A DNA stretch of 44,183 bases from Escherichia phage Psq-1. The stretch lies in sequence record PQ595991.1. The stretch is one strand, 5' to 3'. The position numbers and the translations under genes were made by a program. Below the pieces are notes generated by a model. That model searched no databases. It had not been told where the DNA came from and saw only the letters and a list, made by a program, of their open reading frames with translations. This document shows, in pieces, positions 2,480 to 43,426 of the stretch (position 1 is the first letter of the stretch; the number at the start of each line of letters is the position of its first letter).

Positions 2480-2682
2480 GCTTGACTTGCAACCAACATA
2501 GAGGCCATACTGCAACCAACCAATAAGAGGAGTAATCAAGATGGCACGTAACGATATTTGGGTATTAGCGATCTGGACCACCGCGGCTTTTATCGGCATG
2601 GTTATTTGCGAATTGATATAACCCGCCGCCATACGGACCGTGATATATTGTCCACGGTCCACTAATCAGGAATTAATTAAAT

Positions 2683-9920: not shown

Positions 9921-10069
9921 TTTTGTGTCCTCATTGTTGGTGTGCAACCAATATAGCGCAACCAAGACAAGGATTGCAAGCTAATTTTGCGATTATTTTT
10001 ATCGCTGATAATATTAGAAGCGTGAAGTCGAGCGGGTGGCCTGCTCTGCCACAATCCCAGGGGGATAGC

Positions 10070-25998: not shown

Positions 25999-26078
25999 GG
26001 TATCATCCCCTATATTTGGTTGAGTTTTAGTATTGCACCGCTCAACCAAGAATGCAACCAATTTATGAGGATTCAGCT

Positions 26079-28932: not shown

Positions 28933-28961
28933 ACTATAGTGCAACCAACTATTGGTTGCAA
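28933..28961 (-). promoter_or_regulatory. sigma70-like promoter overlapping an inverted ATTGGTTGCA pair
   Basis: Minus strand reads TTGCAA (-35), 17-bp spacer, TATAGT (-10). The inverted repeat TGCAACCAA-CTA-TTGGTTGCA (28940-28960) overlaps it. Confidence 0.4.
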
Positions 28962-30590: not shown

Positions 30591-30625
30591 CAATATAATG
30601 CAACCAATCTAGTTACGCAACCAAT

Positions 30626-30949: not shown

Positions 30950-31641
30950 TTTAAATTTTCCTCGTTAACCGCTATCGCGAAGCCGCGCGGGGTGAGCGAC
31001 CTGATTAATTTGGTGCGGGCAGATTTGCCTCCGAGGCGACTATACTGCTTCGAGTACCCTTTTTCAACGAAAACAGGTTTCTTCTCTGGCATACGGAAGC
31101 CGTTGCCGGTCCATAAGCAGGTCATCTTCGGATATGAATCGCGGGCGTTGATGTATTCCGGGAAGAGCGGGTGTACGTCATCCTCCGGCAGATATCCGCC
31201 ATACTCCCACGGGTCAAACGAGTGGTCCGGCTTACGCCATTGAGTTGATAGCACGCTGCGCGGATTCTCAATCATATACGGCACTTCAAAGAAATCACCC
31301 AGGTAAGCGGCGATCTTCGCGGTGCGCACCGCCTTAAGCTGGAAGGCAGGGTCGCGGGCGCGTTTGCGCGGGAAAGCTGGCGCACCGCTAACCGCCAGGT
31401 CCGTACACGGCGGGAATGCATAAATGATATCCGGCGTACCGAAATCGCCATTCATCGCGCGGTCTACAAAGTCCAGATCGATAAACTCATTACGATAGCG
31501 GATACCGCGCCCATAAATCCGGTAGTCCAGGTACGACCCGTGATCGGCTTCGGAGTAGTTGAAGCAATAACATTTATGCCCCATCTCGGCAGCACGCTCA
31601 ATCATCAAGCCGCTGCCGTCAAACAATGACCAAATTATCAT
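30946..31641 (-). CDS. compact C5-cytosine DNA methyltransferase-like protein (231 aa)
   Basis: Motif I-like SLFDGSG, PC motif AFPPC, ENV-like IENP, possible motif X GFAIAVNE; far shorter than canonical C5 methylases. Confidence 0.45.
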   Translation of the reverse strand: MIIWSLFDGSGLMIERAAEMGHKCYCFNYSEADHGSYLDYRIYGRGIRYRNEFIDLDFVDRAMNGDFGTPDIIYAFPPCTDLAVSGAPAFPRKRARDPAFQLKAVRTAKIAAYLGDFFEVPYMIENPRSVLSTQWRKPDHSFDPWEYGGYLPEDDVHPLFPEYINARDSYPKMTCLWTGNGFRMPEKKPVFVEKGYSKQYSRLGGKSARTKLIRSLTPRGFAIAVNEENLK

Positions 31642-33066: not shown

Positions 33067-33291
33067 TTATTCCGCCTTTTTCCAGACTTCGGTTTCACTG
33101 TTCCAGTTCCTTTTTGTGGCGTCGTAGTTGGTGCGGTGCCCGATGTGCACACCCGTCGCCCGGAAGCTCTTAAATTTTTGCCAGCACACCGTCAACGGCA
33201 GCGGGTACTTCATGCCCGCGATAAACCATACGCGATCGCCTGGTTTGCATTCGCCCAGTGTGGTGAGTCGGTAGCGTTCTTTCATCGTCAT
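33067..33291 (-). CDS. hypothetical protein (74 aa)
   Basis: ATG 33291 with GGGAGA upstream; directly downstream of a minus-strand terminator. Confidence 0.35.
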   Translation of the reverse strand: MTMKERYRLTTLGECKPGDRVWFIAGMKYPLPLTVCWQKFKSFRATGVHIGHRTNYDATKRNWNSETEVWKKAE

Positions 33292-33534: not shown

Positions 33535-33563
33535 ACTATACTGTTAAGCGACCAATTCAGCAA
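33535..33563 (-). promoter_or_regulatory. candidate sigma70 promoter overlapping an ATTGGTTGC box
   Basis: Minus strand reads TTGCTG (-35, inside TTATTGGTTGCTG), 17-bp spacer, TATAGT (-10). Confidence 0.35.
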
Positions 33564-33822
33564 CCAATAAATCACAGTCGGCTATGTTGTCTATAACGCG
33601 AACGTCCGCACCGCGGCGGGCCATTCGCTCATGTTCTCGTACCTGGTGCGGCTTTGGTTTACCGCCTGGGCGCTTCACTTCGACGAAAACTATCTTGCCG
33701 TTGATGATGATTATCAGGTCGGGCGCTCCTGCGCGCCCCTCCCATGCCACTTTACGGCAGAATCCGCCGACGGCTTTCACCCTCTTCATAAGGTAACTTT
33801 GGATCTTGCCTTCTGGTGTCAT
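33544..33822 (-). CDS. VRR-NUC domain nuclease (92 aa)
   Basis: APDLIIIINGKIVFVEVKRPGGKPKPHQ matches the PD-(D/E)XK core of VRR-NUC proteins. Confidence 0.7.
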   Translation of the reverse strand: MTPEGKIQSYLMKRVKAVGGFCRKVAWEGRAGAPDLIIIINGKIVFVEVKRPGGKPKPHQVREHERMARRGADVRVIDNIADCDLLVAELVA

Positions 33823-37068: not shown

Positions 37069-37158
37069 TTTCAAATTCCTCATTTTCACATGTATCGGGG
37101 TTATTGTGAGCCACCCCGTTCGGCTTGGTTGCTAATCTACTTGGTTGCGCCTAAGCGG

Positions 37159-39012: not shown

Positions 39013-39264
39013 TTATTTTGTCTCCCAGCGGTCAATTGTTTTTGCTTCGGATGCAACGGCGAAACGAACATATTCCAGATTTGAATCAGCCCAAATATAA
39101 AAGTCGGGATTAGTAAAGGTGGCGCGCTTAATTTGCGCGGGTGTGTTGCGGCGTTTATCAATTACGGCAACGCGCGATTGAAAGCTGCCGATGCGTTCGA
39201 ATAGCCAATAGTACGGGCGCTGGTCGCGGGAATCCACCGCCTCGATTAGCGTGAAGCGTGCCAT
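39013..39264 (-). CDS. hypothetical protein (83 aa)
   Basis: Track ORF with GAGGA-type RBS. Confidence 0.4.
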   Translation of the reverse strand: MARFTLIEAVDSRDQRPYYWLFERIGSFQSRVAVIDKRRNTPAQIKRATFTNPDFYIWADSNLEYVRFAVASEAKTIDRWETK

Positions 39265-39277
39265 TGTCTCGTCCTCT

Positions 39278-39304
39278 AAAAATAGGCCCGCAGATTAGCG
39301 GGCC
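39278..39304 (-). terminator. rho-independent terminator or attenuator on the minus strand
   Basis: Stem GGCCCGC / GCGGGCC with 6-nt loop, followed on the minus strand by TATTTTTA. Confidence 0.4.
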
Positions 39305-39312
39305 GGATAATA

Positions 39313-39822
39313 TTAGTCTTCCAGTTCGAAATAGGTTTCGACGATTTCTTTCAGATCTTTGTGGAAGTCTTCGACGTCGTCATCTTCCAGTTTAGCGATT
39401 GATTTGATCTCGAACGATTCCAGCAGGTCGTCAAATTCGTCGTTGGCGTCGTCGTCATCACCACCGGCGATAATCGCGGCATACTGTTTGATTTCGTCGC
39501 GCATCTCTGCCAGCGGATCGGCATCTTTCTTACCTTTGCCTTTCGCCGTGGCTTTTTTACCTTTCGCCGGTTTTTCGTCTTCGGCTTCATCGTCGTCATC
39601 TTCTACGACTTCTTTTTTGGCCTTACCTTTCGCCGGTGCTTTTTTGGTTTTCGCCGGTGCTTCGTCTTCAGCGTCGTCATCTTCTACGACTTCTTTTTTC
39701 GCCTTAGACGGCTTCTTGTCTTCCTGCGTACCAACGGCAGCGCCAACGGTTTCATAATGTTTAGCGATTGTTTCCAGTGCTACTACGCCGCGAGTAATCA
39801 GGTTTACGATTTGTTCAAACAT
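39313..39822 (-). CDS. highly charged tandem-repeat protein (169 aa)
   Basis: ATG 39822 with GGAGA upstream; two 26-27-aa repeats KKEVVEDDD-EDE-PAK-KKA-AKGK-KK plus acidic D/E runs; nucleotide-level tandem repeat at about 39540-39720. Confidence 0.5.
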   Translation of the reverse strand: MFEQIVNLITRGVVALETIAKHYETVGAAVGTQEDKKPSKAKKEVVEDDDAEDEAPAKTKKAPAKGKAKKEVVEDDDDEAEDEKPAKGKKATAKGKGKKDADPLAEMRDEIKQYAAIIAGGDDDDANDEFDDLLESFEIKSIAKLEDDDVEDFHKDLKEIVETYFELED

Positions 39823-40018
39823 GGTATATCTCCGATTGGTTAAGTTTAGGTGTCGACCATTAACTTCGTCGGTGGCCTTAACATATTGCCAGGTTACGCG
39901 TTCTCCCGTTCGGGTAGTGGACCTGGTTATATAATCACGGTTGGGAATCCTGACACTTCGATCCGGCCCCTGCGTTGCCCCTCTCCAGTTTGCGTCCTGC
40001 ATCCTGTCGACGAGGTGA

Positions 40019-40047
40019 ATATTAGATTGGTTGCATGAGGGAGTCAA
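40019..40047 (-). promoter_or_regulatory. sigma70-like promoter for the minus-strand early/replication operon
   Basis: Minus strand reads TTGACT (-35), 17-bp spacer containing TGCAACCAA, TAATAT (-10). Confidence 0.4.
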
Positions 40048-40059
40048 CAACTAATTTCA

Positions 40060-40115
40060 AAAAAAAAGCGCCGAAGCAAAATGCGACGGCGCTAACCAAT
40101 AAGAGACAATGAGAC
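40060..40115 (-). ncRNA. candidate small RNA (~56 nt)
   Basis: Minus-strand promoter TTGAAA-17-AATAAT (40122-40150) followed about 55 nt later by terminator hairpin GCGCCG...CGGCGC and a 9-U tract (plus 40059-40092); no ORF. Confidence 0.25.
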
Positions 40116-40163
40116 GGGGGTATTATTACACGCGTGCGCGCCCGTTTCAATATTCCAAAGGAG

Positions 40164-40192
40164 TTGACACCCTGCGGTTTTAGGTGTAGTTT
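40164..40192 (+). promoter_or_regulatory. sigma70-like promoter for the HTH and primase genes
   Basis: Perfect -35 TTGACA (40164-40169), 17-bp spacer, weak -10 TAGTTT (40187-40192). Confidence 0.4.
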
Positions 40193-40223
40193 CGTTGGTC
40201 ATTAACCAACCGGAGACAGAACA

Positions 40224-40553
40224 ATGAATATCGACGACGCAATCGAAATGTTAACTAAGACTGTTTGCAGTGAGACTAGCCGGTCTTGGGCATATACAGA
40301 TGCCGTTGGGGCGGTGCTATTTGAAATCGAACGTCTGCGACTTACCGAAAAAGAATTGCGCGCGAAGCTGGAATTACTCAACGGTACGGCAGCCAGCAAG
40401 CTGCAAAAGCACAATGAAGAAATGGAAGAATACAAAAAACAGGTTATCCGTTTGCGCGATGAGGGGAAGTCATGGGCGATGATCGCCGAGTTGACAGGAA
40501 TTAATCAGAGCACCGTGCGCTCCTGGGTACGCAATAACAAAACTTCGAAATAA
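40224..40553 (+). CDS. HTH domain protein, putative regulator (109 aa)
   Basis: C-terminal HTH GKSWAMIAELTGINQSTVRSWVRNNK; coiled-coil middle; first gene of the plus-strand early unit. Confidence 0.5.
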   Translation: MNIDDAIEMLTKTVCSETSRSWAYTDAVGAVLFEIERLRLTEKELRAKLELLNGTAASKLQKHNEEMEEYKKQVIRLRDEGKSWAMIAELTGINQSTVRSWVRNNKTSK

Positions 40554-40723
40554 GGCAACGGCAATGAGCTTAATTAAATTCGCTGTAACAAGACCCTCAT
40601 GGGCGATGATCGCCGAGTTGACAGGAATTAATCAGAGCACCGTGCGCTCCTGGGTACGCAATAACAAAACTTCGAAATAAGGCAACGGCAATGAGCTTAA
40701 TTAAATTCGCTGTAACAAGACCC
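40470..40723. repeat. exact 127-bp tandem duplication (40470-40596 and 40597-40723)
   Basis: Both copies read identically by eye; they span the last 28 codons of the HTH gene and the first 11 codons of the primase gene. Confidence 0.9.
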
Positions 40724-42955: not shown

Positions 42956-43049
42956 ATTTTGCGCGCATTGGTTGCCATTTTGAGTGTTTTTAGCTGGTCG
43001 CATTGGTTGCCGTGTAGTGTAAAAATATTGAATAGTTATGCAATAAAAC

Positions 43050-43222: not shown

Positions 43223-43370
43223 AAATCCGGGATTGCAAAATACACGGCAGCACATTGTAAATTGCGGTCGTCGCGGAACTAGGCAACCAATGCGGGATGC
43301 AGAACGTGGTGTGAAAAATGCAGTCACAGCAGATAGCGATCAACTTTTTCATACGCGTGATTAATATTGG

Positions 43371-43399
43371 TTGCATTCACCTCGGCGCCTTGCTATATT
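43371..43399 (+). promoter_or_regulatory. sigma70-like promoter built from two ATTGGTTGCA boxes
   Basis: -35 TTGCAT (43371-43376), 17-bp spacer, -10 TATATT (43394-43399). Confidence 0.4.
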
Positions 43400-43426
43400 G
43401 GTTGCACACCAACAGGAGGGCGGAAC

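Follow-up and report, generated by a model that had tools for sequence, protein, structure and literature searches.

What the short minus-strand unit at 40059-40150 in the genome of Escherichia phage Psq-1 is for, placed as it is between two divergent operons, is the question that this locus raises. The DNA analysed (sequence record PQ595991.1; 44,183 nucleotides, hereafter the window) represents the complete or nearly complete genome of a virulent, HK578-like siphophage of Escherichia coli that belongs to Dhillonvirus, and the 2.5-kb segment around the unit is 91-96% identical to that of the phages Lzu_P3, B2, PC2, bob, SO-1 and about 170 others. When the annotation of phage bob was mapped onto the window, the structural and lysis genes were found to run rightward at roughly 1-27,700 and the replication/recombination operon leftward, beginning at 39,822 and reaching about 27,750, with a rightward operon starting at 40,224, in which the gene for a helix-turn-helix (HTH) protein of 109 amino acids (aa) is followed by the helicase-primase gene. 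The unit is located in the 401-bp gap between the two divergent operons (39823-40223), which is the main early control region. An earlier note, made from the letters of the DNA, had proposed that the unit produces a small RNA of about 56 nucleotides (nt), or alternatively that its terminator insulates the neighbouring leftward promoter. Our comparative analysis finds the small RNA to be the best-supported reading: a discrete RNA is probably made from the unit, and the more demanding statement that this is a free-standing non-coding RNA gene of Dhillonvirus which acts against ribosome-binding sites is put forward tentatively, as one that is somewhat more doubtful than not.

For comparison, 50 Dhillonvirus loci, which amount to 31 unique sequences, were taken from IMG/VR, from GenBank phages and from metagenomes; 12 of these loci were fetched through an anchor outside the RNA, namely a single metagenome scan with the neighbouring promoter, and all 12 of these further contigs carry the same RNA. 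The minus-strand promoter announced by the earlier note is indeed present at 40122-40150, with ten of 12 consensus matches (TTGAAA-17-AATAAT). Its -35 hexamer TTGAAA (40145-40150) is kept in 29 of the 31 unique relatives, with TTGAAC and TTGAAT as the exceptions, and its -10 hexamer AATAAT (40122-40127) is invariant in all relatives. The G+C-rich spacer of 17 bp, CGGGCGCGCACGCGTGT (40128-40144), ends in the TG of an extended -10 element (40130-40129) and contains the palindrome CACGCGTG; it is almost invariant in relatives, beyond the needs of a promoter, and may be a protein site as well. Only two sigma-70 sites with at least ten of 12 matches were found genome-wide, at 31067 and 40150, both on the minus strand, and the TG occurs only at the latter, which gives the candidate RNA, in silico, a promoter of its own directly upstream that is the best extended -10 site of the genome. 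Strong host-type promoters seem to be rare in this genome, since the two sites observed compare with a mean of 3.1 in shuffled genomes.

From the distance to the -10 hexamer, transcription would start near G40115, and the predicted RNA would be about 50-57 nt long. Its 5' body, GUCUCAUUGUCUCUUAUUGGUUAGC (40091-40115, minus strand; the 25-nt arm GTCTCATTGTCTCTTATTGGTTAGC), is predicted to be single-stranded, being unpaired in both the minimum free energy (MFE) and the centroid folds. The arm leads into an intrinsic terminator whose hairpin, identified by its fold and by covariation (40067-40093, minus strand), consists of an outer helix of 6-7 bp, a 2x2 internal loop and an inner helix of 3 bp, with the outer stem GCGCCG/CGGCGC, as noted before, at 40068-40073 and 40087-40092. 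With an MFE of -16.2 kcal/mol (z = -3.55), the hairpin is more stable than any of its shuffled versions (0 of 200 fold as well), and it was missed by the pattern scan only because the loop limit of that scan was 8 nt. The stem is followed by a tract of nine U (40059-40067, minus strand), which varies between 8 and 14 in relatives, so that the GC-rich stem with its compensatory pairs is joined to a U-tract of more than seven residues.

The unit is present in all 50 loci. Every alignment cell of the hairpin (100%) holds a standard pair. Both partners have been exchanged in two pairs (G-C to U-A and G-C to C-G), and an A-U pair has become G-U. These changes all belong to the clade of loci L014 and L017 and thus represent few independent events; the two exchanges, being compensatory, still show that the helix itself, and not just its sequence, is selected. 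Of 27 haplotypes, 25 have the 25-nt arm without any change. In the neighbouring HTH gene of these phages, the columns that do not vary make up 68%, 86% and 26% of the first, second and third codon positions, respectively, and the longest invariant run is 13 nt. The conservation of the arm therefore exceeds that of the second codon positions of the neighbouring gene, and the arm must be under strong sequence-specific constraint. Changes are found only in the start-site zone, in the loop of the hairpin and in the length of the U-tract, and the start-site zone, the 6-10 nt between the -10 hexamer and GTCTC, varies more than any other part of the region; these three are the places in which an RNA gene would be expected to tolerate change. 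Phage Opt212, which is viable, carries a 5-nt duplication in the arm that leaves the 3' seed intact. As a combination, a promoter about 50 nt from a covarying hairpin in the main control region of 50 out of 50 loci is beyond chance.

The promoter of the leftward operon (TTGACT-17-TAATAT, 40019-40047, minus strand), which carries a ATTGGTTGC box in its spacer, has its -35 hexamer TTGACT (40047-40042) 11 nt past the end of the U-tract, in agreement with the earlier observation that the terminator sits just upstream of it, and the U-tract would lie at about -48 to -56 of this promoter, where an UP element would be. The insulator suggested as an alternative by the earlier note accounts for the hairpin and the U-tract, but it does not account for the strong promoter and the invariant 25-nt body that precede them. 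No minus-strand gene lies upstream of the terminator, all genes from 40224 onward being on the plus strand in the mapped annotation, so that its only plausible client is the promoter of the unit itself, and no transcription from elsewhere would need to be blocked. Moreover, neither a mere insulating terminator nor a promoter for just any transcript would require the constraint that is seen in the arm. The proposal of a small RNA is thus borne out in part: the maintained hexamers, the compensatory stem, the conservation of the body and the lack of another client for the terminator all favour it. Existing records do not annotate such an RNA, and in that of WF5505 the hairpin is annotated as a terminator.

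Could the region instead encode a small protein? The only open reading frame (ORF) listed across the unit, of 42 aa (minus strand, 40022-40150), begins with a TTG within the -35 hexamer and has no ribosome-binding site, although the record of CHD5UKE2 annotates a corresponding minus-strand coding sequence. Since its frame crosses the U-tract, the length of which varies from 8 to 14, this ORF is not conserved and can be ruled out, which upholds the earlier statement that no ORF fits between promoter and terminator. On the plus strand, AAGAGA precedes the ATG at 40109, from which a 24-aa ORF could be read; however, the gap between these Shine-Dalgarno-like bases and the ATG is only 2 nt, the frame is shifted among relatives by insertions and deletions in the start-site zone, and the pattern scan found no plus-strand promoter upstream of this ATG. 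Coding on either strand was rejected on account of this frame-breaking length variation, no conserved ORF being found on either strand, and a small protein as the product of the region is regarded as next to impossible.

The earlier note had seen in the RNA a stretch resembling a box; this stretch, UAUUGGUUAGC, is present at 40094-40104 of the minus strand, but its link to ATTGGTTGC needs refining, because the informative match is a longer one of 14-16 nt, TAACCAA-N3-GAGA(C), which occurs at both flanking ribosome-binding sites. The heptamer TAACCAA has exactly three copies on the two strands of the 44-kb genome, all of them in this 400-bp region, and TAACCAA-N3-GAGA is observed three times against an expectation of 0.02. 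Site A, UAACCAAUCGGAGA (39829-39842, minus strand), lies in the ribosome-binding region of the first leftward gene (ATG 39822), the ribosome-binding sequence of which is UUAACCAAUCGGAGAUAUACCAUG, and is invariant in the main clade; site B, TAACCAATAAGAGACA (40093-40108, plus strand), is the plus-strand complement of the RNA body; and site C, UAACCAACCGGAGACA (40203-40218, plus strand), lies in the ribosome-binding region of the first rightward gene, that of the HTH protein (ATG 40224), with the ribosome-binding sequence UUAACCAACCGGAGACAGAACAAUG. An unprompted repeat finder recovered the same relationships, with 81% identity over 16 nt between B and C, 82% over 22 nt between A and C and 86% over 14 nt between A and B (site B being part of its repeats D4 and I6). 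Owing to the strands that carry the three sites, the RNA is complementary to both flanking mRNAs.

In the arm, UUGGUUA stands opposite UAACCAA and (U)GUCUC opposite the Shine-Dalgarno sequence GAGAC(A), and at site C the CAU of the arm also stands opposite the start codon AUG. The predicted duplex energies are -19.2 kcal/mol with site C of the HTH gene (40224) and -18.3 kcal/mol with site A of the leftward gene (39822), and the summed energy of the observed arm was not attained by any of 300 shuffled arms. With two substitutions in its site C, WF5505 has a predicted duplex of 17 contiguous pairs (-24.1 kcal/mol), and an A-to-G change in site C of locus L001 retains a G-U pair. The arm, unpaired in the predicted folds, would thus be an accessible seed complementary to ribosome-binding sites, of moderate specificity (ranks 4 and 5 of 51 initiation regions). 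Elsewhere in the genome, the longest perfect complement of the arm is the 12-nt AACCAAUAAGAG (2518-2529, plus strand), located in the ribosome-binding site of a 26-aa ORF (2541; duplex energy -19.8 kcal/mol), and the 9-nt GAGACAAUG (39262-39270, minus strand), a perfect complement to the 5' end of the RNA, covers the bases near the Shine-Dalgarno sequence of the second leftward gene together with its start codon (39264; -16.1 kcal/mol).

Two observations may be recorded beside these sites. The ORF at 2541-2621 (plus strand), MARNDIWVLAIWTTAAFIGMVICELI, is hydrophobic, has the strong ribosome-binding site AAGAGGAG, is located at the end of the lysis cassette and is unannotated in bob; it has no PHROG match. 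Shine-Dalgarno sequences of the GGAGAC/GAGAC type within 20 nt of the start were found at four of the 51 mapped starts, those at 33285, 30545 and 39264 on the minus strand and 40224 on the plus strand, all of which belong to early operons and none to structural or late genes, small as these numbers are.

The anatomy of the unit, its conservation, the covariation of its hairpin, the lack of coding capacity and the complementarity are shown by the analysis; from them we infer a promoter that fires during infection and an RNA that is stable, pairs in vivo, possibly with the help of a chaperone such as Hfq, and has a biological consequence. The host sigma-70 RNA polymerase would start at about 40115 from the strongest consensus promoter of the genome, copy the 25-nt unstructured arm and halt at the intrinsic terminator, yielding an RNA of about 50-57 nt. 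The arm would be an antisense-oriented image of the early translation-initiation region that the first genes of both operons carry. As the RNA accumulates in infection, it would base-pair with the mRNAs of the gene at 39822 and of the HTH gene at 40224 over their ribosome-binding sites and would lower the translation of both first cistrons; other early sites of the GGAGAC type and the 26-aa ORF at 2541 may be further targets. One may go further and imagine that an RNA of about 55 nt times the early programme of a virulent siphophage, having arisen as an antisense-oriented copy of an early initiation region, and that it shuts off the first cistrons of both operons at once, maybe together with other genes of the GGAGAC type and the gene for a small membrane peptide in the lysis region, alongside or in place of a protein repressor, with a single motif being recognised in two ways, by a protein as DNA and by the small RNA as RNA; this wider scenario is speculative, and we consider it unlikely in its entirety.

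Several findings weigh against an RNA that acts on the flanking genes. The match of its promoter, taken alone, lies within chance. By duplex energy, the flanking sites rank only fourth and fifth among the 51 initiation regions, and several intragenic sites match or beat them in a genome-wide duplex scan; since the flanking sites are good but not unique matches, the energy ranking alone is no proof of targeting. In a sizeable minority of the loci listed, other Shine-Dalgarno variants stand in place of the GAGAC half of site C, and CHD5UKE2 (L018) and locus L037 have a different rightward leader without the site C motif, while their RNA is unchanged. No covariation between seed and target was seen, and in L014 and L017 the seed has lost one base and site A has diverged without clear compensation. 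At the DNA level, the AACCAA of site C also forms the right half of a palindrome that extends over the rightward start, and boxes of the TTGGTT type are DNA motifs at many promoters, so that the shared motif could be a protein site. Finally, neither a Dhillonvirus transcriptome nor a small RNA was found in the literature searched, the sole 'transcriptome' paper being host-only.

The persistence of the arm where site C is missing or altered is what a conserved host target would predict, and the RNA may accordingly be real with host transcripts or host small RNAs as its main targets, the likeness to the phage ribosome-binding sites being secondary. The architecture of the unit is that of a trans-acting small RNA, and phage small RNAs with host targets are documented (PMC12197685); lambda PreS and the anti-small RNAs of Stx phages would be comparable cases. 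The threefold motif within 400 bp of the RNA gene, however, points to local targets, and main targets in the host are considered quite unlikely.

The last two points of sequence listed above, the palindrome and the boxes, lead to the main rival, a credible and serious one, according to which the TTGGTT(A/G) elements act mainly as DNA, as sites for a phage regulator such as the HTH protein of 40224, the product of which is an HTH_23 / sigma-70 region 4-like protein. The set of operators would then comprise site B, the spacer box of the leftward promoter and the palindrome that covers the rightward start, the short RNA would be a by-product, and the hairpin and T-tract would stop stray transcription and give the leftward promoter its UP element. 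The rightward promoter concerned (TTGACA-17-TAGTTT, 40164-40192, plus strand), in which both hexamer regions are invariant in relatives, is placed back to back with that of the small RNA, 13 bp separating the two -35 hexamers; its -10 hexamer scores 3 of 6, under the -10 threshold of the scanner, and the promoter was read from the sequence. Just past it, the palindrome TTGGT-N5-ACCAA (40195-40209, plus strand) extends over the rightward start site and overlaps site C as a candidate DNA operator.

The counts speak for such operators. The heptamer ATTGGTT is observed 17 times against 5.2 expected, mostly in ATTGGTTGC(A) boxes that are intergenic and in both orientations relative to genes, and TTGGT-N5-ACCAA palindromes occur three times against 0.11 expected, each just past a -10 hexamer. 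At the leftward promoter and at a TTGACC-17-TAGATT site near 37148, a box is found at an identical position of the spacer. Site B and the spacer box of the leftward promoter are inverted relative to each other, with about 66 bp between them, and the conservation of the small-RNA promoter spacer beyond promoter needs would fit a protein site too. Operators leave it unexplained why the hairpin shows compensatory changes, why GTCTCATTGTCTC is invariant beyond the box, why site B also matches the flanking sites in their Shine-Dalgarno and AUG parts, and why the element is entered from the best sigma-70 promoter in the genome; in addition, sites A and B are single half-sites rather than palindromes, and Opt212 tolerates a 5-bp insertion between its two GTCTC copies. 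That the elements work mainly as DNA is rated as possible but rather improbable. The two readings are not exclusive, and an operator function is compatible with a small RNA.

Across the genome, about 20 ATTGGTTGC(A) boxes were located, intergenic, often paired, in both orientations and at promoters, at 2489-2524, 9937-9965, 26023-26062, 28941-28959, 30600-30625, 33560-33568, 37125-37148, 40026-40034, 42967-43010, 43283-43291 and 43366-43412; the three palindromes are those at 9937-9951, 40195-40209 and 43398-43412. The boxes probably constitute the operator system of a phage regulator. They may be compared with the stoperators of cluster A mycobacteriophages, which are asymmetric repressor sites and likewise short motifs repeated at intergenic positions and promoters; it is the boxes and not the RNA unit that are compared here, and they differ in occurring in both orientations and as palindromes, and in a phage that is apparently virulent.

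A further possibility is that the unit is the leader or attenuator of the leftward operon, in which transcripts from the promoter of the unit would usually end at the hairpin and would be carried through it by a phage or host factor, with a boxA-like CUCUUA and the hairpin serving as a nut-like site, and so add to transcription past internal terminators. The stretch GUCUCUUA shares CUCUUA with CGCUCUUA, which we take to be the boxA of lambda, and the hairpin follows 7 nt on. The consensus of lambda boxA is CGCUCUU(U)A, of which GUCUCUUA matches six of eight positions, a likeness that was noticed post hoc. As at the nut sites of lambda, CUCUUA, a short spacer and a hairpin are arranged downstream of an early promoter and before an operon with internal terminators, and the intergenic terminators of the leftward operon (e.g. 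39304-39285) would make antitermination useful. In contrast to nut, however, the hairpin with its nine U is a canonical terminator and its loop is unlike boxB; nine U after a hairpin of -16 kcal/mol predict efficient termination. No alternative antiterminator fold was found, the 5' arm being unpaired in both folds, a separate conserved promoter follows immediately downstream, the rightward leader holds no matching element, and neither an N-like nor a Q-like protein was identified, no N-like gene being recognised among the flanking genes. A leader or attenuator is therefore judged highly improbable.

The leftward operon itself shows terminator-like hairpins with T-runs between its genes, at 39285-39304 (minus strand), directly after the first gene, and upstream of 36280, 33285, 30545, 28891 and 28327 (minus strand), which imply partial termination, internal promoters or some antitermination. 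Its first gene, which contains an 81-bp tandem repeat (39539-39706, two copies, 83% identical), encodes a highly charged, acidic product of 169 aa, rich in lysine, glutamate and aspartate, with no function assigned (phrog_3127). About 148 bp of the 5' leader of this operon (39855-40002) are missing from loci L002, L005, L008, L015, L018 and L019. A core of this leader (39935-39986, 52-55 nt, GGAGAGGGGCAACGCAGGGGCCGGATCGAAGTGTCAGGATTCCCAACCGTGA, minus strand) is 92-94% identical to intergenic sequences of T1-like Drexlerviridae (swan01, tunus, slyngel and XY3), where it is likewise found on the sense strand between genes, and it may be a mobile non-coding element; it has no Rfam hit, and the leader as a whole folds no better than shuffled sequences. 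On the rightward side, a perfect tandem duplication of 127 bp (40470-40723, 2.0 copies, 100% identical) extends across the 3' end of the HTH gene and the 5' end of the helicase-primase gene and yields a chimeric ORF of 38 aa (40564-40680), composed of the helicase-primase start and the C-terminus of the HTH gene product. Since the two genes are only 10 bp apart in relatives, this duplication is recent-looking or possibly an assembly artefact. A replication origin or primer RNA was also considered for the interval and set aside, as the interval has no iterons and the repeat region annotated in bob lies in the helicase-primase gene.

Searches for relatives of the small RNA outside Dhillonvirus gave none. 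Rfam returned no hit in the whole window at gathering thresholds, and in the control region, with E values up to 10, the best matches had 14-22 bits against thresholds of 39-79 and were terminator-driven; tRNA and tmRNA genes are absent from the window. An exact 16-mer search of IMG/VR returned only Dhillonvirus contigs and chance matches in unrelated contexts, a 21-mer had no hit in 185,579 bacterial and archaeal species genomes, and the box sequence ATTGGTTGC is not mentioned in any phage paper of the literature searched.

To our knowledge, regulatory RNAs are hardly documented for virulent coliphages, and none has been described for Dhillonvirus, whereas temperate phages and prophages offer well-documented examples (OOP, sar, DicF, PreS and VpdS). 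The candidate RNA would be new for this phage group, while belonging to a familiar kind of element. About 190 Dhillonvirus isolates have been sequenced, many of which are considered for therapy or are part of the BASEL collection, and an RNA of the proposed kind would offer a compact handle on their early gene control, in which both early operons have, at their first gene, a predicted pairing site for one and the same 25-nt arm. The annotation of these genomes would be corrected, as the records now show nothing, a lone 'terminator' or a spurious coding sequence of 47 aa at this position, and the unit, being a small and well-insulated promoter-terminator cassette, could serve phage engineering. 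It would also aid the reading of mutants of the region: the esc2 deletion by which HK578 escapes OLD, in the gp45-gp46 promoter region, concerns this intergenic region, the coordinates not being given (bioRxiv 10.64898/2026.07.10.737580).

As regards known systems, a unit of the neighbouring genus Cornellvirus can be mentioned first. In Salmonella virus VSiA (L053), a minus-strand unit at 2360-2486, with a TTGACT-18-TATACT promoter followed after about 90 nt by the sequence AAGCCCCG...CGGGGCTT and a T-run, is located antisense between a Cro-like HTH gene and a helicase-primase gene, the product of the latter being 43% identical. It may be an analogous small RNA, but it is a different unit, whose complementarity to the local ribosome-binding sites amounts only to 7-mers, and it was not counted as a homologue. 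The enterobacterial trans-acting small RNAs of the Hfq type, such as DicF (53 nt) of the Qin prophage, lambda PreS and VpdS of VP882 (PMC12197685), share with the Dhillonvirus unit an unstructured seed, a GC-rich hairpin, a long U tail and the lack of an ORF, and their seeds likewise match ribosome-binding regions of genes located elsewhere, over a limited 7-17 bp. Neither in sequence nor through Rfam is the present unit related to them, and, unlike DicF, PreS and VpdS, it is encoded by a virulent siphophage rather than by a temperate phage or prophage; its putative targets belong to the phage itself, being the early genes to its left and right.

The sar RNA of P22 and the OOP RNA of lambda (68-77 nt; PMC12197685) likewise have a dedicated promoter and terminator inside a control region, and the predicted occlusion of ribosome-binding sites or destabilization of early regulatory mRNAs is a further likeness (PMC12197685). 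However, sar and OOP are cis-antisense RNAs, fully complementary to an overlapping mRNA, which the Dhillonvirus RNA is not: the interval 40059-40115 is neither covered nor preceded by a gene, conserved ORF or promoter-like site on the plus strand, and since nothing on the opposite strand overlaps the RNA, it would pair in trans and imperfectly. In its architecture and predicted action, the putative RNA thus appears closest to the small RNAs of the Hfq type, and by its location and purpose it would be closest to sar of P22 and OOP of lambda.

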